NCBI GenBank assembly: GCA_039679545.1
Contig: JBDKUT010000075.1
Coordinates: forward strand, 1-10,100
Direction of reading: 5' to 3'
Source of the DNA: Thermotogota bacterium
GTDB taxonomy: Bacteria; Bipolaricaulota; Bipolaricaulia; UBA7950; UBA9294
Length of the DNA: 10,100 bases
Shown: positions 1 through 9,155 of the stretch, one piece after another
Position numbering within the stretch: the first letter of the stretch is position 1
Layout: each line of letters starts with the position of its first letter
Program-made: the position numbers and the translations under genes
Notes under the pieces: generated by a model
What the model was told of the DNA's origin: nothing
Databases searched by the model: none
Seen by the model: only the letters and a program-made list of their open reading frames with translations

Positions 1-549
1 GAAGATACGGCCGACGACGAGGCTGAAGCGATCTTCCAGACAAACAGCATGGGCGTGTTGCGCGTCTGCTGCGCTGTGCTCCCGATCATGCGAGAGCAGG
101 GGACGGGGAGGATCGTCGTCGTCTCATCGATCGCCGGGCGGGTCGCCGTGCCGTTCCAGGGGCTCTACAGTGCGACGAAGTTCGCGGTCGAGGGGCTGTG
201 CGAAGCTCTTCGAATGGAGGTCAAGCGGTTCGGCATTCACGTGACCCTGGTCGAGCCCGGAGACTTTCACACGGGATTCACAGATCGGCGACTTCGCGTC
301 CGCGCCTCGAGGGAGAACGGAGCGTACAGCGAGGCGTGTCGGAGAGCCCTTGAGATTGCGGAGTCCGACGAACGCCGAGCGTCCACCCCGGAGGGTGTGG
401 CTCGTCTTGTCTCGCGAATTCTGTCCCGGCGAGCGCCGCGCCTTCGCTACACCGTCGGCCCCGCCCTTCAGAGGGTCGCCGTACGACTGAAAAGCGTCTT
501 ACCATCCCAAGTGTTTGAATGGGCTCTCGGACTCTACTACCGCGCCTAG
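1..549 (+). CDS. Classical short-chain dehydrogenase/reductase (SDR), 5'-truncated; candidate 3-ketodihydrosphingosine reductase
   Basis: Frame is open from base 1 (EDTADDEAEAIFQTNSMG...), so the ATG at 49 is internal. SDR catalytic elements: helix Asn (FQTN), GRIVVVSS (Ser), YSATK (YxxxK), then VTLVEPG. The TGxxxGIG cofactor motif lies outside the window. Stop TAG 547-549. Substrate is inferred from context only. Confidence 0.92.
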   Translation, partial: EDTADDEAEAIFQTNSMGVLRVCCAVLPIMREQGTGRIVVVSSIAGRVAVPFQGLYSATKFAVEGLCEALRMEVKRFGIHVTLVEPGDFHTGFTDRRLRVRASRENGAYSEACRRALEIAESDERRASTPEGVARLVSRILSRRAPRLRYTVGPALQRVAVRLKSVLPSQVFEWALGLYYRA

Positions 550-589
550 CGGTTGGCGCCACTGCCCAGCGAGCCCCGAGGAGGGCGAA

Positions 590-1813
590 GTGACCGACCT
601 GTTCGAGAAGTGTCGCGCGTTTTTCACCGATCCCGCCTACGCCGAGGCCCTCGGCTATCCGGCGAGTCCCCAGCGTGCCAAGGATCTTGGCGTCTACGCG
701 TTCTTCATTCCACTTGATCAGACCGAAGGAACGGAAGTCACGATTGCCGGGAAGAGGCTCGTCATGCTCGGGTCGAACAACTACCTGGGGCTGACCATGC
801 ACCCCGACGTCCGCCGCGCCGCGCAGGAGGCCGTTCGGTCGTTCGGAACAAGCTGCACGGGCTCCCGCTTTCTGAACGGGACTCTTGCTCTGCACGGAGA
901 ACTGGAGCAGCGGCTCGCGGCCTACGTCGGAAAGGAGAAAGCTCTCGTTTTCACGACGGGATACCAAGCGAACCTCGGCGCGCTGTCCTCACTCGTCGGG
1001 CACGGAGACATCGTGATCTGCGACAAAGAAGATCATGCCAGCATTGTCGACGGATGCCGGCTTTCGCTCGGGAGGATGGTCCGCTTCCGTCACAACGATT
1101 TCGCGGACCTTGATCGCGTTCTCGGGAAGTGTCCGAACGGTGCCGGTCGGCTCGTCGTCGTCGATGGTGTGTTCAGCATGGGGGGTGACATTGCGCTTCT
1201 CCCGGATCTCGTGCGTGTTTGTCGGACTCACGGAGCGCGGTTGATGGTCGACGATGCGCACGGGATCGGTGTTGTCGGAAGAGGGCGGGGAACCTCGGCG
1301 CACTACGGGGTCACGCAGGCGGTGGATCTCATCGTGGGAACGTTCAGCAAGTCGCTCGCCTCGATCGGAGGATTCGTCGCGGGGGACGAGTCGACGATCC
1401 ACTGGATTCAGCACGCGGCGCGCTCGCTGATGTTCAGCGCCAGTCTCCCCGCACCCAACGTCGCGGCTGCTCTGGCGGCGCTTGACGTGATGGAGCGTGA
1501 GCCGGAACGAATCGATCGGGTGAACCGAATCGCCGATCGAATGCGAGACGCCTACCGCGATCTCGGGTTCGACGTCGGCGAGAGTCAAACGCCTATCGTC
1601 CCCATCTTCGTAGGTGACTCCCTCAGAGCGATGCAGGTATGGCGGTCCCTGTTCGACGCCGGCATCTACGTGAATGTGGCGATTCCGCCGGCAGTCCCTC
1701 CGGGCAAGGCCCTGTTGCGGACGAGCTACATGGCCACGCACACCGACGAGCAAATGGAGCGCGTTCTCAACGCTTTCGCGTCGGTCGGGAAGATCCACGG
1801 GCTGATTCCGTAG
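590..1813 (+). CDS. spt: PLP-dependent alpha-oxoamine synthase, serine palmitoyltransferase-like (407 aa)
   Basis: GTG at 590 preceded by GAGGAGG (578-584); the track start at 515 overlaps the SDR and is unlikely. Motifs: GSNNYLGL, GTSCTGSRFLNGT, DHASIVDG, DGVFSM, VDDAHG, GTFSKS (PLP lysine), FSASLP, LLRTSYMATH. GSRFLNGT and GTFSKS match bacterial SPTs as I recall them better than BioF (TFGKA/TLSKA) or Kbl (SVRFICGT, TLGKA). Family is near-certain; serine/acyl specificity is inferred. Confidence 0.8.
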   Translation: MTDLFEKCRAFFTDPAYAEALGYPASPQRAKDLGVYAFFIPLDQTEGTEVTIAGKRLVMLGSNNYLGLTMHPDVRRAAQEAVRSFGTSCTGSRFLNGTLALHGELEQRLAAYVGKEKALVFTTGYQANLGALSSLVGHGDIVICDKEDHASIVDGCRLSLGRMVRFRHNDFADLDRVLGKCPNGAGRLVVVDGVFSMGGDIALLPDLVRVCRTHGARLMVDDAHGIGVVGRGRGTSAHYGVTQAVDLIVGTFSKSLASIGGFVAGDESTIHWIQHAARSLMFSASLPAPNVAAALAALDVMEREPERIDRVNRIADRMRDAYRDLGFDVGESQTPIVPIFVGDSLRAMQVWRSLFDAGIYVNVAIPPAVPPGKALLRTSYMATHTDEQMERVLNAFASVGKIHGLIP

Positions 1814-2640: not shown

Positions 2641-3627
2641 CTATGTTACATCATCCGGGAGGTAGATAGCGAACTTGCACCAAGGATCGCCGTTCAACAC
2701 CGTCTCGATGACCTCAGCTCGCAAGGGCTTTCCGAAGATCACGTCGTACGGCTTCTTGTGAAACGCGGCGCTGCAGTTGCAGAACGTCGCAGGGACTTGC
2801 GTCTCTCCGTTGCGTAGCGACTCGCGTGCCCACGGGCAGTGGCAGTAGAGGTAGGCTTTTTTCTTGGGATCCGCTTCCGCGAGGAACTCGACGGCCATGT
2901 ACGGGATCTTCGCCTCGTAGATCACGTTGCCGATGCGAAGGCCCTGTCGGATCTCCGGGTGAGCCTGCACAAAGGCGATGACCTCGTTCGTAATTGGCTG
3001 GTTAAAGTAGAGGCCCTTCTTGTCGCGGATCTTCTCAAGCTCCGCGATGAACGCGTCACCCTTCTGCGCGAGATAGGCGTCGATTCCTCCAGCAGCTTCG
3101 TAGTTGCTCTTCTCCCCGGCGAACCCCTCGTCGGGCAGGTCGCGCAGTCCGGTTCCGAGGATCTCGGCGCACCGCTTGGGTCCGACACGCTTCTCCAACC
3201 GCTCGACAGCGACGCGCATGGCGCGATGCTTCTCGGTGTTTGGGGTGCCCAGGGGAGGTAAGGCGATCCCGCGGAAGATCCGATCCCGCTCGTCGGTCCC
3301 GAGTTCGCCGGAAAGCTTCGTGAACAGATTTCCAAGGGCTTCGTGACCGTCGATGTACTCGAGGGCCGTGGCGAAGACCTGGTAGTTGCCGGCGAATCGC
3401 CCGCCTCGCGCGATGGTCAAGTACGTCTCCCACGTGTTGGCGTCCTCTTCGATGAGGACCGCCGAGAACGCGTTGACGTCCTTCCTCGTAGCGGACGAAA
3501 GATCGTGTGGAGGCTTTCGCGTCCGGAGGAACGTCTCGAAGCGTTCCACGACCGCGATGGACTCCTCCATTTGCTTCTCGGTGAGCTTGCGTTCGAGCAG
3601 GTAACGGCGGAACCCCTCCCGATCCAT
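2641..3627 (-). CDS. Cys-rich DUF6144/V4R-like protein with a helical N-terminal extension (328 aa)
   Basis: ATG at 3627 (MDREGFRRYL) with AAGGAGG at 3640-3634; the track start at 3774 overlaps the divergent gene. C-terminal YCHCP...TFCNCS...IFGKPLRAEVIETVLNGDPWCKFAI is the pattern I associate with DUF6144/V4R-like domains. Confidence 0.75.
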   Translation of the reverse strand: MDREGFRRYLLERKLTEKQMEESIAVVERFETFLRTRKPPHDLSSATRKDVNAFSAVLIEEDANTWETYLTIARGGRFAGNYQVFATALEYIDGHEALGNLFTKLSGELGTDERDRIFRGIALPPLGTPNTEKHRAMRVAVERLEKRVGPKRCAEILGTGLRDLPDEGFAGEKSNYEAAGGIDAYLAQKGDAFIAELEKIRDKKGLYFNQPITNEVIAFVQAHPEIRQGLRIGNVIYEAKIPYMAVEFLAEADPKKKAYLYCHCPWARESLRNGETQVPATFCNCSAAFHKKPYDVIFGKPLRAEVIETVLNGDPWCKFAIYLPDDVT

Positions 3628-3697
3628 CTGTGCCCTCCTTCGACATGCCGGGGCGAGTTTTTTGTGGAGCACTACGCGTCCGTTCATATACCTTCGT

Positions 3698-3716
3698 GGT
3701 GCAGCGTCTCTGCACC
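3698..3716. promoter_or_regulatory. Perfect 7-bp inverted repeat (GGTGCAG-N5-CTGCACC) in the divergent intergenic region; candidate operator
   Basis: Read directly: GGTGCAG 3698-3704, spacer CGTCT, CTGCACC 3710-3716, between start codons at 3627 (-) and 3764 (+). Function inferred. Confidence 0.4.
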
Positions 3717-3750
3717 GTTGCGGAGCGGCGACGCCGGACGCCTCGTTCGG

Positions 3751-3756
3751 TAGAAT
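3751..3756 (+). promoter_or_regulatory. -10 element TAGAAT positioned for a leaderless transcript
   Basis: TAGAAT (5/6 match to TATAAT) ends 7 nt before the ATG at 3764. No Shine-Dalgarno sequence in between (CCTATTC) and no clear -35. Confidence 0.65.
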
Positions 3757-3763
3757 CCTATTC

Positions 3764-4486
3764 ATGTGCCGCATGCTCGTTGCTCCGCTCGGACTGCCAG
3801 GTCACGCTGTCCTCGAGCCGTTTCGGGCGATGGCCCGCGGGGAGAACCTCGCAAGGAGGCACGGCAACACATGGAACCATCCCCACGGTTGGGGAATCGT
3901 CTACCAGGATGACGGCCGGCTTCGCTGCTATCGAAGCGCGCGCCCGTGCTGGGATGACCCAGACTTCGACGCGTTCAAGAAGGCCCGTGTCTTTCTGCTT
4001 CACGCGCGGCGCAAGACAAACGGCGACGTTTCGAGTGAAAACTCGCACCCGTTCTCCCTTGAAGTCGACGGAAGGACGTGGTTCTTCTGTCACAACGGAA
4101 CGGTTCACGATCCGCTTCCACCTCTTCACGAACGTGCTGGCGCGGATTCAACCGATTCGTACCGGCTCTTCTGCAAGCTTGCCGCGGAAGGACTCGGTGG
4201 AAATCCCGGCGCCGCGCTTCGCTCGGTCTACGGACAACTTCGCGACTTCACGTCGCTGAACACGTTCCTCTTCGAGGAACAAGAGTTGTGGGCGGTCTGT
4301 CGGTGGACAAAGGACGAGGCGTACTACACTCTCCATCTTGCGGAGTCGGAGGCCGGCCCGCTCGTCTCATCGGAGCCGCTCGACGGAGTCGACGTGGCGT
4401 GGACTGCCTTAACCAACGGGTCCGTGTTGCGAATCGATCGACGAACCGGCGCGATCGGCCGGCAGGCCCTTTCGGGGTCTTCCTAG
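3764..4486 (+). CDS. Stand-alone class II glutamine amidotransferase (Ntn hydrolase; YafJ/EgtC/Dug3-like) (240 aa)
   Basis: Begins M-C-R-M, giving the N-terminal nucleophile Cys after Met removal, which fixes the start at 3764. Motifs HPHGWG, LLHARR, ENSHPF, FCHNGTV, STDS, LVSSEPL. Confidence 0.92.
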   Translation: MCRMLVAPLGLPGHAVLEPFRAMARGENLARRHGNTWNHPHGWGIVYQDDGRLRCYRSARPCWDDPDFDAFKKARVFLLHARRKTNGDVSSENSHPFSLEVDGRTWFFCHNGTVHDPLPPLHERAGADSTDSYRLFCKLAAEGLGGNPGAALRSVYGQLRDFTSLNTFLFEEQELWAVCRWTKDEAYYTLHLAESEAGPLVSSEPLDGVDVAWTALTNGSVLRIDRRTGAIGRQALSGSS

Positions 4487-4493
4487 GAGGAAT

Positions 4494-5270
4494 GTGGCGC
4501 GCAAGGAACAGGACGAGCCGGCCCTTCCCTACGTGCCCCGAACCTACCGGCGCGACGAATCGGCGCCCTTCGTCCTTTGGACGTCTCCGTGTGAGACGGG
4601 CGAGCACCGCGCATGCCTTCGCTCGTGGGCCTTCGACGCAATGTCCTTCCTATCCGAGGCCCTTGGATTCCGGCCGTCCCGGCGTCTCCACGTCGTCTCG
4701 TTTCGAACGAACGAGGAGGCGCGACTCTCTCTGGGGCGGGAGGTTCCATCGGCGATGGCCCTCGCACCGTACGCGGGAGAGGCTGACTGCTTGGTGGTCG
4801 TTCAGTCGGCGAGCGTTGATTCACGGAACGCTGACCCTGACCGCATGAGAGGAATCCTCGTGCACGAGATGGCCCACCAACTCATCGCAGAGCGGACTGG
4901 GTCGACGAAGCTGTTGGGGGATGGAAATCGATGTGTGAACGTTTCGACGTGGCTGAATGAAGGACTTGCGGAGCTGCTCCGGTTTCAGTTCCTGCACGAC
5001 GCAGCGAGGATCGAGGGCGCTCTCGGCGAGTTCGAGAGGGCGCGAGACATCCTGACCTGGCGGGACGTCGATGGGCTTCTGGATGATCTCGACGCCGACC
5101 GTCGCGCCGAGGCGTTCGTTCGGGCAACCGGGGCCGTGGCGTGGCTCGCTCGCGAAGCCGGAGTCGTAATGCTGTTCGATCGGCTCGCTGTCGTGGATCA
5201 CGCGGTGGCTCCTAACAGCGGCTGTGCGGTGCCGGCTCTCCGACCTGTCCTTCGTCGTCTCTCCGCGTAG
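4494..5270 (+). CDS. Putative gluzincin (clan MA-like) zinc metallopeptidase, probably cytoplasmic (258 aa)
   Basis: LVHEMAHQ (HExxH) followed by WLNEGLAE (third zinc ligand motif). AGGAGG at 4485-4490 overlaps the upstream stop, suggesting translational coupling. No signal peptide seen. Exact start uncertain because the SD spacing is only 3 nt. Confidence 0.75.
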   Translation: MARKEQDEPALPYVPRTYRRDESAPFVLWTSPCETGEHRACLRSWAFDAMSFLSEALGFRPSRRLHVVSFRTNEEARLSLGREVPSAMALAPYAGEADCLVVVQSASVDSRNADPDRMRGILVHEMAHQLIAERTGSTKLLGDGNRCVNVSTWLNEGLAELLRFQFLHDAARIEGALGEFERARDILTWRDVDGLLDDLDADRRAEAFVRATGAVAWLAREAGVVMLFDRLAVVDHAVAPNSGCAVPALRPVLRRLSA

Positions 5271-5805: not shown

Positions 5806-5839
5806 AAACACACGGGGCCCCGTGGGGAGCCCCGCGTGT
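5806..5839 (-). terminator. Intrinsic terminator-like hairpin between the convergent EamA and surface-protein genes
   Basis: Arms 5808-5818 (ACACACGGGGC) and 5829-5839 (GCCCCGCGTGT). On the minus-strand RNA the single mismatch becomes a G-U pair and the stem ends in a short UUU. May act bidirectionally. Confidence 0.65.
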
Positions 5840-5867: not shown

Positions 5868-8800
5868 CTATCGATTCACGAACACGATGCCTTTTGCGGA
5901 GTCGGTGTTGCTCGGGTCGAAGGTGTTCGTCCCGTCCGTTGCCGCAAGGACGTAGATGTAGGCGCCGTTCGCAAGCGCATTGCCATCCTCGTTCACCCCG
6001 GTCCAGATGACTTCCGAGACATTCGCTTCGGTCTTTGCCCACACCGGGTGCCCGGCGAGGTCGTAGATTTCGACGGAGAACGTCGTCGCAATGCCCGAAC
6101 CGTCGTACGCGAAAGCGACTTCGTCGTTGAACGGGTTCGGCCCGGCGTAGAACGACGTGACTTCAAGCTCGCCCGATACGATGACCACCGTGGCCGAACT
6201 CGTATCGGTCGGATCCGTCGGGTCGACGTACGTTGCGGTGATCTCCTCGCCGACGGCTCCGTCGAGCACGATCGGATCCGTGACGAACATGTGGCTCTGG
6301 CTTCCGTACGTCGTGAGGTCGTAGGTGGCGCCGCCAATTGTGACCGCGCCGGACAGAGAGACATCCTGCGTGTGTGAGAGGTCGGTTATCCTCACACGAA
6401 GTGGATCTCCCTGCACGTACGAGTCGACGACGTTGCCCTGGGTGTCGATGAATTCGGTGCATGAGGCCTCGGTCGCCGTGCCGTTGCCACCGATCGAGAC
6501 CTTGATTGAGAGGACGGCCGAGTCGGAGTGGTTCGACGGATCCTGGTAGAAGGCGACGATCGTGTCGCCGGGCAAAACGCCGAGGGTTGGCACACACGTG
6601 TAGACGTCAACGAGGTCGACGCAGATGACGGATATGAAGACTCCGCTTGCCACGTTCGTCTCGAGCAGGTCAAGGGCCGCCCAACGTCCGCTGCGCGGGT
6701 TGAGGACGTAGATCCTCGGCGCGCCGTCGTTCGTGTCGCCCGCGTACGGATTCGGCGAGTTGTTGAAGATGTTCGTGTCGCCGAGCAGCGCGTTGACCGG
6801 GTGCAAGTTGACCCGGTCCGGAGTGCAGTCGAACGCGTTCAGCGGCAGCGGGCCGAACGGGATGTTCTGACCTTCGTCCCAGAAGCCGTCGATTCGCTCG
6901 CGACGGTACAGGTCCTCGTCCTGGTCGTCATCGATGACCTCGAGGAAGACGCAGTCCGAGTTCACGTAGTCCTCGACCTCGTTGCCGTTCCGATCGAGGA
7001 AATGCATCCTCGTCGTCGACCCGTCGTAGACCTGGGTATCGGCGATGGACATCAGATCGTACGAGACGTCGTTCGAGACACGGACTTTGTCGATTCGCGG
7101 GCCCGAGTACGCCGTGTACGTGCTCTCGTCGCCGAGCCCGAACATCCCTTGGTTGTTGTCCACGTAGTCCACGTCGTTGTAGCGAACATAGACGTCGTCC
7201 TCGTTGTACGCTTCGAGTTTCCAGTTGTCGAGGACGAGTTGATAGCCGCCGAGAAGGCCGGCGAGACCGACGCCGAGGGCATCCCACACGGGAAGGAGTT
7301 CCATTCCCGCGTTCGAGAAGAAGATGGACGAGTTCGACGACGTCTCATCGAGGGCCCAGAACTCCCCGTCGTCCTCGTCGTGCGGATTGCAGATGTGGAC
7401 AACGATCTGCTCAGGGCAGCACGCCTCGACGTTGGCGTTCTCGTCGATGACTTGAACGTAGACCGCGTCGCGACCGAGCCAGTACTCGCTCTTCTCCATG
7501 CGGGTCGCGTCAGTGAAGTTCGTTTGCGAAGTCTTGGCCTTCGAGCCGATGTACGCCACGGCCAGCTTGAAGTCATCTTCGTCGTTCGGGTCGAGGTAGT
7601 AGGCAACGAGCGTGTCGTTCCCATTCAGGCTGTTGAATCCGAGGTCGGCGAGGATCGAGTTGAGCTTGAGCTCGAAAATTCCCGTGTCCACGCCCGTTTC
7701 GCGAGCGTAGAACGAAATGGCCGTCACGCCGTTCGCACTCACCGTGTCGAACAGCGATCCGTGGTCCTCAAGGTCGAACACCCCAAGCTTCGGGTAGTGA
7801 ATGTAGTAGCGACCGTCTTTCGCTCCAGTCGTTCCGTAGTCGTTTTTCTCCGCGTTGTAGATGTTGAACCAGCGGATCGGCCGGTTGGTGTCGTCCACAG
7901 CCGGCGGCACGGGCGTTGCCGGCAGCGCCGGGTCTTGCGGGGTCAGGTAGTTGCCAGCGATGCCTCCCGTGCGCTTGAGCATGCAAAAGTTCGTCGCGTT
8001 GTTGCCGGTTTGCTTCTCGTCATCGTCGGGTGAGTTGGCCGGGTTCCACGACCCGGGGTTCACGATGATGAACACCGGCACGTACTCGACGCGGTTGCAG
8101 TTTAGGTTCTCATCGGCGTCGACGACGCGGATCGTTGCGGCCTCGTTTCCGTCCTTGTAGATGACGGTGTCGCCCCGCGAGCTCGTGGAGTCCCATGCGA
8201 TCGTTGCCTCCGTGTCGATGATCTTCATCATCGCGACCGCGACGTCGGTTTCCTCGTTTGGGTCCTGAACCATGCCGATCAGCGTATCCATGTTCTCGAA
8301 CCGGCCGATCAGCCACTCGGTTGGGGAGGTGGTGCGGTTCGAGTTCAGCTCGGACGGGAGAGCCCACTTCCAGGAATCCAGAGCGATGAGCCCTGTCTCG
8401 AACCCCGTTGAGTTGCCGGGGAGGTTGCCGACCCAGTAGAGTACGTCGCCGTCCGCGTTGTTTCCGCCCTTCGTCTCGTTGTGAACGTCCAGGAACGAGT
8501 AGTTGCCCCACTGGAACGACGTGCCCATGGTGGCGGAGGTCTTCGCGGCGAGGGGAGCGGCCCCTGCGGGTACGTCAACGACGTGCGTCCCCTTCCACAG
8601 CTCGCTCGCCCCGAAGCTCTCCCTGGTGCCGATCTGGAACGGGTGACTGCTCACGAAGACGCTCGTGTTGGCGCCGGTCTCCTCCAGGTAGTCCCCGTCG
8701 AGCCATCCCGGATTCCCGGGGTAGTGTCCCTTGTACGGAACGTAGCCGTCCTCGTCGTACCTCTTGCCGGCCGGGCTCCCCGTCTCGTTGACGTAGCTTA

Positions 8801-9053
8801 TCCACATGATGTAGGCGCCTGTCTTTGGGTCCATCAGCTTGACGTCGGTCCAGAACTTGTCTCGGACGTCGCAGTCGATGTTCTCGTCCGGATCGTAGAC
8901 GCAGATCCAGACCTCCGCTCCTTCCTGAACGTTCGTGACGCGGGTTCCGCCGTCTTGATCGGACGAGAAGTACATCTCGGCCGTGCTCGCGGCGAGCGGA
9001 AGAACCGCCAAGGTCACGACAACCCAAGCCAGCACTAACCCTCTACGCACCAT
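5868..9053 (-). CDS. Large secreted acidic repeat protein (1061 aa), S-layer/surface-protein-like, with C-terminal FlgD-Ig/T9SS-CTD-like domain
   Basis: ATG at 9053 after GAAGGAAGGGG. Sec-type signal peptide MVRRGLVLAWVVVTLAVLPLAASTA. Asp/Asn/Thr-rich with recurring V.D.D.N, L.ET...sgvF and Y.DP....D motifs. The last ~100 aa read GPNPFN...VEIYDLAGHPV...WTGVNEDGNALANGAYIY...KGIVFVNR. Confidence 0.85.
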   Translation of the reverse strand: MVRRGLVLAWVVVTLAVLPLAASTAEMYFSSDQDGGTRVTNVQEGAEVWICVYDPDENIDCDVRDKFWTDVKLMDPKTGAYIMWISYVNETGSPAGKRYDEDGYVPYKGHYPGNPGWLDGDYLEETGANTSVFVSSHPFQIGTRESFGASELWKGTHVVDVPAGAAPLAAKTSATMGTSFQWGNYSFLDVHNETKGGNNADGDVLYWVGNLPGNSTGFETGLIALDSWKWALPSELNSNRTTSPTEWLIGRFENMDTLIGMVQDPNEETDVAVAMMKIIDTEATIAWDSTSSRGDTVIYKDGNEAATIRVVDADENLNCNRVEYVPVFIIVNPGSWNPANSPDDDEKQTGNNATNFCMLKRTGGIAGNYLTPQDPALPATPVPPAVDDTNRPIRWFNIYNAEKNDYGTTGAKDGRYYIHYPKLGVFDLEDHGSLFDTVSANGVTAISFYARETGVDTGIFELKLNSILADLGFNSLNGNDTLVAYYLDPNDEDDFKLAVAYIGSKAKTSQTNFTDATRMEKSEYWLGRDAVYVQVIDENANVEACCPEQIVVHICNPHDEDDGEFWALDETSSNSSIFFSNAGMELLPVWDALGVGLAGLLGGYQLVLDNWKLEAYNEDDVYVRYNDVDYVDNNQGMFGLGDESTYTAYSGPRIDKVRVSNDVSYDLMSIADTQVYDGSTTRMHFLDRNGNEVEDYVNSDCVFLEVIDDDQDEDLYRRERIDGFWDEGQNIPFGPLPLNAFDCTPDRVNLHPVNALLGDTNIFNNSPNPYAGDTNDGAPRIYVLNPRSGRWAALDLLETNVASGVFISVICVDLVDVYTCVPTLGVLPGDTIVAFYQDPSNHSDSAVLSIKVSIGGNGTATEASCTEFIDTQGNVVDSYVQGDPLRVRITDLSHTQDVSLSGAVTIGGATYDLTTYGSQSHMFVTDPIVLDGAVGEEITATYVDPTDPTDTSSATVVIVSGELEVTSFYAGPNPFNDEVAFAYDGSGIATTFSVEIYDLAGHPVWAKTEANVSEVIWTGVNEDGNALANGAYIYVLAATDGTNTFDPSNTDSAKGIVFVNR
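6180..8980 (-). repeat. About five degenerate protein-level repeats (probably Ig-like beta-sandwiches) in the surface protein
   Basis: Approximate units: R1 8980-8215 (VYDPDEN / LEETGANTSVF / VQDPNEETD), R2 8210-7550 (VVDADEN / RETGVDTGIF / YLDPNDEDD), R3 7535-7040 (VIDENAN / LDETSSNSSIF / VRYND), R4 7020-6490 (VIDDDQD / LLETNVASGVF / YQDPSNHSD), R5 6465-6180 (ITDLSH / YVDPTDPTD). Not evident as DNA repeats. Confidence 0.7.
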
Positions 9054-9126
9054 GGCTTGCCCCTTCCTTCTCACGCAGACGTACCTCGACGCGGAATCCC
9101 CTTGCGCCGAACGTTGGACTGTCACC

Positions 9127-9155
9127 AAGGTAGGCTCCGCAAACGACGGTGTCAA
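9127..9155 (-). promoter_or_regulatory. Sigma70-type promoter of the surface-protein gene: TTGACA-N17-TACCTT
   Basis: Minus strand: consensus -35 TTGACA (9155-9150), exactly 17 nt, -10 TACCTT (9132-9127). Predicted start near 9120, about 67 nt before the ATG. Confidence 0.7.

Follow-up and report, generated by a model that had tools for sequence, protein, structure and literature searches.

Architecture of the S-layer-like gene and its product

The window analyzed here is the whole of contig C75 (JBDKUT010000075.1; 10,100 nucleotides) of a genome assembled from a Bipolaricaulota bacterium (source genome G000, 93.6% complete). On its reverse strand, with a YchF GTPase gene upstream and an EamA gene convergent to it, lies a gene for a surface layer (S-layer)-like protein that combines an N-terminal signal peptide, five immunoglobulin (Ig)-like repeats (R1 to R5) and a C-terminal domain (CTD) resembling those that route cargo into the T9SS (type IX secretion system). 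The parts of the gene are:

5868..9053, minus strand: whole gene, open reading frame (ORF) read 9053-5868; 1061 residues, 113 kDa
8982..9053, minus strand: signal peptide, residues 1 to about 24; helix 2-17 in the model, cleavage inferred
8208..8981, minus strand: repeat R1, residues 25-282; Ig domain of archaeal S-layer type with a large variable insertion
7542..8207, minus strand: repeat R2, residues 283-504; Ig domain with an insertion
7038..7541, minus strand: repeat R3, residues 505-672; Ig domain whose insertion is conserved and rich in Asp, Glu and Trp; three Cys conserved
6489..7037, minus strand: repeat R4, residues 673-855; best conserved of the five, with conservation of 95% or more in 73 columns
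6174..6476, minus strand: repeat R5, about residues 860-960; minimal, no insertion, second motif degenerate
5871..6173, minus strand: T9SS type-A-like CTD, residues 961-1061, ending FVNR; library matches and fold match

A sequence-only reading of this DNA had described a secreted, strongly acidic protein with a sorting-type C-terminus and about five degenerate repeats sharing three ordered motifs, and most of that description is borne out. The N-terminus is hydrophobic and carries no lipobox, 110 of 116 family members keep A22 and 106 keep A25, and on these features we take it to be a Sec signal peptide that is cleaved. The acidity is evident from a pI (isoelectric point) of 4.08, with 9.8% Asp, 15.2% Asp plus Glu and 5.6% Lys plus Arg, compared with 5.8% Asp and 10.5% Lys plus Arg in the proteome; only 13 of 756 long predicted genes encode a more negative protein (top 2%). 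By domain, the net charge per residue is -0.09, -0.07, -0.13, -0.10, -0.13 and -0.11, i.e., a slight trend at most.

The AlphaFold model, based on 116 sequences, is nearly all β-structure arranged in six β-sandwiches, with a local confidence (pLDDT) of 88.6 and a predicted TM-score (pTM) of 0.78. BLASTP self-comparison alone detects no internal repeat, the repeats being too diverged; profile-profile comparison relates R1 to R4 (P 96, E 2e-9), R4 to R5 (P 93, E 5e-8), R1 to R2 (P 83), R3 to R5 (P 82) and R2 to R4 (P 61), the remaining five pairs scoring P ≤13 and all five comparisons of a repeat with the CTD P ≤0.6. Three motifs follow one another in the same order per repeat, [VI].[VI].D.D.N, L.ET[GSN]..[TS]G.F and D.[LI]...Y.D, except that the second is gone from R5. 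The L.ET motif occurs four times, a number reached in 0 of 2000 shuffles, and V.D.D.N is by itself weak evidence (p 0.03), the patterns in this test having been fitted to the S-layer-like protein itself.

The large variable insertions noted earlier in R1 and R2 are a family trait, measuring 39-126 and 41-67 residues, respectively, across 116 members. Unlike these, the insertions in R3 and R4 are strongly conserved. Invariant polar residues in the insertions include H558, D561, D562, E564, W590, D609, N610, W611 and E614, and ten Cys are conserved at 98-100% in the family alignment. No Pfam or NCBIfam model covers the repeats, and a ligand-binding or adhesin domain was not found in Pfam and NCBIfam scans and VIA fold searches.

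The repeats are related to those of an archaeal S-layer protein

The S-layer protein of Nitrosopumilus maritimus (NmSLP; Nmar_1547, PDB codes 8C8K-8C8R) emerges as the nearest relative in structure. With Foldseek, the top four matches of the whole model are NmSLP entries (E 1e-22 to 5e-18, the next match 2.6e-11), and the top six of a separate R1-R2 model are N. maritimus S-layer entries. The TM-scores of the whole-model NmSLP matches are low (0.14-0.18), from which it follows that the domain arrangement differs from that of NmSLP. VIA-align fold searches, run against 48,161 chains, place 8c8k first for both halves of the array, i.e., for residues 506-854 of R3-R4 (Z 12.3, root mean square deviation (rmsd) 6.7, 228 residues aligned, 19% identity) and for the R1-R2 model (Z 12.3, rmsd 5.9, 223 aligned, 22% identity); in the latter search the runner-up reaches Z 8.0 and the Haloferax S-layer Z 6.0. 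Matches to the complement and α-2-macroglobulin folds were rejected as generic Ig-domain strings with identity ≤12%.

Searches of PDB sequences with the protein, the full alignment and an R3-R5 alignment missed NmSLP, which was found by structure and profile-profile methods only. A motif scan of public genomes yields at least 129 loci, many of them from Nitrososphaerota; one of these, L071, is an NmSLP ortholog (2185 bits to 8c8k) and carries the three motifs too. Profiles of L071 units match R1 (P 94; unit D8, P 93.7), R5 (P 89) and R2 (P 57), and weakly R4 (P 20) and R3 (P 4); R5 against S-layer unit D9 gives P 88.8 and E 2.5e-6 over 75 columns, and reversed-profile controls for the repeats give P ≤2.2. 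There is no match between L071 unit profiles and the CTD, nor any profile match of the last archaeal domain, D10, in the S-layer-like protein. A hidden Markov model (HMM) of 37 archaeal units, searched against 16,288 ORFs of the source genome, retrieves three ORFs, namely the gene (E 4e-15), a paralog (6e-15) and another copy that is truncated (0.007), the next-best ORF lying at E 4.9, and an HMM of 193 units from outside the family recovers the gene family in the source genome at E 2e-39.

The likeness to thaumarchaeal S-layer repeats, which had been put forward earlier, accordingly has support from both structure and sequence profiles, and the predicted models and profile matches identify the five Ig-like repeats as remote relatives of the NmSLP repeats. 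The protein also resembles NmSLP in having a signal peptide, tandem Ig-like domains with the three ordered motifs, large insertions, near-duplicate paralogs in the genome and an Asp-rich, Lys/Arg-poor composition; the available text on NmSLP gives 10.9% Asp, 1.7% Lys and 2.2% Arg, and describes ten Ig domains, EGTA sensitivity and a charge gradient (PMC11153153). It differs in that its repeats number five against the ten domains of NmSLP, a T9SS-like CTD stands in place of the last archaeal domain, ten Cys are conserved and the host is a diderm bacterium. By architecture the protein is outside the NmSLP family, though S-layer-like in build and composition. The Atlas gives the 'SlaA-like' label PF28202, at a score of 0.82, to 16% of one Nitrososphaerota cluster.

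Spread of the repeat

The NmSLP Ig repeat spans archaea and many bacterial phyla, and the Pfam copy searched holds no model for it. Units were counted in 72 proteins that carry the motif and have 400 or more residues, and 14 proteins were scanned for Pfam domains. At least four units are present in 18 of the 72, of which 11 are archaeal and three rows, representing two genes, are repeat-plus-CTD proteins like the present one, in records labelled Fraserbacteria and Thermotogae. The repeat is a widespread module and not specific to S-layers; for an S-layer role, a dense repeat array is more telling than kinship with NmSLP.

Dense arrays of five to seven units occur at L060:5767-7893, L079:1-3210, L160:1-2724 and L082:1-4938, in records labelled, in this order, Clostridia, Bathyarchaeia, Chromatiaceae and Thermoanaerobaculia. 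Pfam gives no match for the proteins at L060, L079 and L160, and all four are further S-layer candidates.

C-terminal sorting domain and putative export machinery

A signal peptide and a C-terminal β-sandwich sorting domain give the protein the layout of a T9SS type A cargo, and the sorting-type C-terminus claimed from sequence is supported at both the profile and the fold level. The CTD scores 27.9 bits with CHU_C (cut-off 27) and 22.9 with TIGR04183 (cut-off 23). In VIA-align its model matches the CTDs of PorU (Z 11.2, rmsd 3.2, 93 residues), mirolase (Z 9.9, rmsd 1.8, 78 residues) and PorZ (Z 9.6, rmsd 2.8, 86 residues), and the fold also matches the CTDs of NucA, RemA and FspA. A match to the flagellar hook cap FlgD was rejected, as it extends over no more than the final 80 residues, a cross-match usually given by such CTDs.

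Complete CTD proteins number five in the source genome and PorV/PorQ-like barrels three, each barrel directly behind a CTD gene; the other cargoes are a PKD protein, an S8 protease and one in which a vWA-like region was identified by eye. An operon on contig C21 (L037:6583-13563) combines the S8 protease with CTD, a PorV-like barrel and a 1330-residue SprA-like protein. A profile of the latter, built from 16 sequences (3 of 18 fetched loci were left out, being in the wrong frame), matches SprA 6H3I at E 1.5e-9, and the gene is present in 175 of 184 genomes of the phylum. Pfam PorV above cut-off occurs in 0 of the 184. In the source genome (93.6% complete) the PorU model matches CTD and Ig regions only, and no PorU catalytic domain was found. 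Of the GldKLMN/PorKLMN motor and ring, the searches covered GldK and GldM and found neither; nor was Peptidase_C25 found. The controls in these searches were weak or silent, none of them responding for Peptidase_C25 or GldM.

The CTD fold (Z 8.3-11.2) and the frequent placement of a CTD gene directly before a PorV/PorQ-like barrel gene resemble the PorU-PorV and PorZ-PorQ pairs of Porphyromonas gingivalis (PDB codes 6ZA2, 5M11), and the SprA-like pore gene in the same genome recalls the SprA-PorV translocon of Flavobacterium johnsoniae (PDB codes 6H3I, 8GL6). Compared with those systems, the pore is about half the size (about 1330 residues versus 2403), and the cargo body has neither a protease nor a propeller. 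A further precedent is offered by TfsA and TfsB of Tannerella forsythia, described in the available text as T9SS-exported S-layer proteins (PMC12175726); by description these too are large, come as paralogs, carry a T9SS signal at the C-terminus and build an S-layer on a diderm cell, but their CTD is cleaved and attachment is by lipidation, whereas here no PorU catalytic domain was found. Taken together, these features make export of the S-layer-like protein to the cell surface likely, and mark it as a likely main cargo of the phylum's compact T9SS-like module.

Two side observations concern cargo genes of the source genome. At G000:C105:24201-30119, a frame of 1659 codons that encodes a CTD and, as read by eye, a vWA-like region is followed by a PorV-like barrel; its third-position GC content (GC3) is 0.66 versus about 0.85 for the other cargo genes, and it is possibly a recent acquisition. 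The paralog of the S-layer-like gene on contig C18 (L001:3741-9088) is preceded by genes for an exosortase H-like protein, a membrane protein of the XrtH-associated kind and a CARDB/DUF11 protein that ends in a C-terminal transmembrane tail; here a CTD cargo has another surface-anchoring system as its neighbor.

Family, paralogs and genomic neighborhoods

Among 7993 candidates scored, 538 are relatives of the S-layer-like protein; of the 12 listed matches with a taxon name, 11 belong to Ca. Bipolaricaulota and the other bears the label 'archaeon'. Between genera, identity is high (50-60%). The source genome holds two further copies, one on C18 (49% identical) and one cut off at the end of C131, which answers the paralog count proposed earlier. 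Of 130 genomes with a completeness of 85% or more, 89 have the family as detected by a repeat-only profile, some weak matches possibly being single repeats. The family is less universal in the phylum than the SprA-like pore, although its absences are soft because many matches lie at contig ends. Fused or longer forms number 0 among 7994 candidates of 1858-5000 residues, which is weak evidence.

A barrel gene stands directly behind the family gene in 10 of 26 related loci (own locus excluded, three dropped for short flanks). The G118 clade sister of the present gene stands second in a trio of paralog, barrel and paralog, and the best matches of the truncated C131 copy are barrel-linked family members; these relationships raise the possibility that a cognate barrel is missing from the assembly, which we offer as a guess.

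In another family, the gene takes the shape of two consecutive ORFs (L041:8370-12653, G006:C1), which encode R1-R3 (568 residues) and then an 859-residue protein with extra Ig-like domains inserted ahead of R4-R5-CTD. Similar pairs occur in G007 and G016. The arrangement suggests a modular or split form. Hypervariability was considered and dropped: about 100 seemingly separate clusters from a distant lineage are at the median 97% identical (99 compared).

Proposed role in the cell envelope

A hexagonal, outermost proteinaceous S-layer with 6.25 nm spacing is reported on the toga of strain J31, and the available text of that preprint names no subunit (bioRxiv 10.1101/2025.11.21.689855). Those literature matches on Bipolaricaulota and S-layers that were read name none either, as far as their available text goes, and among the matches listed no paper combines T9SS, SprA and PorV with Bipolaricaulota; further literature searches brought up no mention of the protein, and most subscription journals are outside the coverage of these searches. 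The S-layer-like protein may be a building block of the J31 coat. We judge the chances to be about even that it is an S-layer subunit, i.e., an Ig-repeat protein exported via the SprA-like pore, held by a PorV-like barrel and packing into a lattice.

Onto the observed architecture, relationship of the repeats to NmSLP, CTD fold and presence of SprA-like and PorV-like genes, a four-step route can be projected. The signal peptide would direct Sec export, and the ten conserved Cys would form disulfides. Passage through the SprA-like pore would then be directed by the CTD, as happens in Bacteroidota. PorU on PorV and PorZ on PorQ are anchored non-covalently, and the CTD here would bind a PorV-like barrel in the same manner, probably uncut, since no PorU catalytic domain was found. 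In the last and weakest step, the repeats and conserved insertions would form lateral lattice contacts, with cations such as Ca2+ bound by the D.D.N and Y.D motifs; paralogs, of which a genome has two or three, would act as alternative or co-assembling subunits. The available text on Ran1 describes it as lacking lipopolysaccharide (LPS) genes (PMC6092417), which fits an anchor other than LPS. The complete picture, a toga S-layer that unites archaeal-type Ig repeats with a type IX tail, exported by stripped-down SprA/PorV machinery with neither sortase nor recognisable motor and anchored by the uncut tail, is somewhat short of an even chance. The role of major S-layer subunit, high expression and cation binding, all proposed in the sequence-only reading, remain inferences, and the repeat occurs at one to three copies in many large bacterial surface proteins not known as S-layers.

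Several observations weigh against a lattice-forming subunit or against parts of this route. The archaeal loci were fetched by a motif taken from this bacterial family, so that the profile and HMM tests lean toward a match, a bias that the fold searches do not share. Unlike NmSLP, the protein has no clear N-to-C charge gradient (-0.07 to -0.13 per residue). A 6.25 nm cell requires a layer thickness of 24 nm with six subunits, 12 nm with three and 4 nm with one, and an NmSLP-style hexamer is therefore a poor fit should 6.25 nm be the lattice constant. Of 71 high-quality genomes, 58 have the gene family and 70 the SprA-like gene; in genomes of family f6 the gene family is detected in 0 of 9. The present gene, like those at 16 of the 26 related loci, has no adjoining barrel. 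The SprA-like and PorV-like assignments score below curated cut-offs, and GldK was not found in the source genome. As for the repeat itself, 54 of the 72 motif-bearing proteins hold one to three units, many in large bacterial OmpA-, DUF11- and C25-containing proteins, and four of the dense-array rows (at least four units) come from other bacteria; kinship with NmSLP, the repeat being so widespread, raises the odds of an S-layer role without proving it. Finally, the Thermotoga toga is, in the available text, a hexagonal array of β-barrel trimers with 9.8 nm spacing (PMC10160955), and the source genome has at G000:C20:1589-3874 (L196) an SLH-domain gene and, directly after it, one for a barrel-like protein whose last residue is Trp, which we assign as a Thermotoga-type Omp-alpha/Omp-beta pair.

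The low-copy occurrence of the repeat in many bacterial adhesin-like proteins is what would be expected if the Ig domain were a common stalk module and the S-layer-like protein a surface-displayed scaffold or adhesin-like protein, exported and anchored alike and forming no lattice. The other CTD cargoes (S8 protease, PKD and vWA-like proteins) are ordinary surface proteins, one barrel per cargo suggests display over a self-supporting sheet, and the patchy distribution of the family and the poor fit of the 6.25 nm spacing point the same way. On the other hand, the protein is nearly all repeat, as in archaeal S-layer proteins, the scans for ligand-binding and adhesin domains were negative, and the conserved, well-predicted insertions together with the pTM of 0.78 indicate a compact rigid body and not a flexible stalk; we regard a scaffold as rather unlikely, if the strongest of the competing explanations.

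The barrel-trimer toga and the SLH/barrel pair also mean that the J31 pattern could be porin, in which case the protein would be a toga or prostheca part on or under a porin array (a minor component, cap or periplasmic scaffold) and Omp-beta-type barrels would produce the hexagonal pattern. The available text of a survey reports that Bipolaricaulota carry the Thermotoga-type Omp-alpha/Omp-beta pair (bioRxiv 10.1101/2021.05.31.446380), in keeping with this assignment. The J31 layer is, however, described in the text available as an outermost proteinaceous S-layer, its 6.25 nm spacing is unlike the 9.8 nm of Thermotoga, and the CTD argues for export past the outer membrane, which makes such a part improbable. 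Least probable is a secreted metal-dependent enzyme or binding protein with an active site drawn from the invariant His, Asp, Glu, Trp and Arg of the R3-R4 insertions: the many invariant polar residues, and a cross-genus identity that is high for a coat protein, would suit it, but Pfam, NCBIfam and PDB-sequence searches and three fold searches reveal no enzyme family, catalytic domain or catalytic fold, and cation sites and lattice contacts would equally give invariant acidic residues. The check suggested earlier, AlphaFold followed by Foldseek, gave β-sandwich repeats with NmSLP entries ranked first, and of the refuting conditions listed with it, those that sequence can address did not occur.

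With this protein, the S-layer seen on the first member of a deep-branching phylum to be cultured has a specific candidate that can be tested. If it does form a lattice, archaeal and bacterial S-layers would have a traceable building block in common, an archaeal lattice module would be joined to a Bacteroidota-type export route in a bacterial S-layer, and the cation-sieve idea from ammonia-oxidising archaea could be tested in a bacterium.

Flanking signals and other genes in the window

The regulatory elements around the gene are:

9150..9155, minus strand: -35 hexamer TTGACA, perfect consensus; by eye, kept in 3 of 3 orthologs (G140, G142, G144)
9127..9132, minus strand: weak -10 hexamer TACCTT (3 of 6 matches), 17 nt past the -35; TAnnnT in 3 of 3 orthologs
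9060..9070, minus strand: purine-rich ribosome-binding site preceding the ATG at 9053; similar in three orthologs
5808..5839, minus strand: GC-rich 14-bp hairpin past the stop codon, -28.6 kcal/mol; same position in 3 of 3 orthologs

The near-consensus promoter claimed for the gene holds for the conserved -35 and fails for the -10, and a promoter scanner run on the window calls none for it. Similarly, of the claimed terminator the conserved hairpin stands and the U-tract does not, only 2-3 T following the stem, and a terminator scanner did not call the hairpin; it is possibly a terminator common to the S-layer-like gene and the convergent EamA gene. The codon index of the gene lies at the 76th percentile of 1295 genes, the index being weak in this genome, and three metatranscriptomes from one study, which hold short foreign pieces including one 177-nt contig resembling the gene, provide no evidence either way.

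Elsewhere in the window, positions 4494-5270 (plus strand) encode a 258-residue protein that has an HEXXH motif and is not assigned to any family with confidence, and positions 2641-3774 (minus strand) a 377-residue protein whose C-terminal part is rich in Cys-X-Cys/Cys-X-Cys, with a weak ATC_hydrolase match (E 0.007). At positions 1-1813 (plus strand), a short-chain dehydrogenase/reductase with 3-ketodihydrosphingosine reductase as best NCBIfam match (194 bits, cut-off 400) is directly followed by a pyridoxal phosphate enzyme best matching serine palmitoyltransferase (502 bits, cut-off 640); the pair possibly belongs to a sphingolipid pathway, in a phylum reported to be without LPS.

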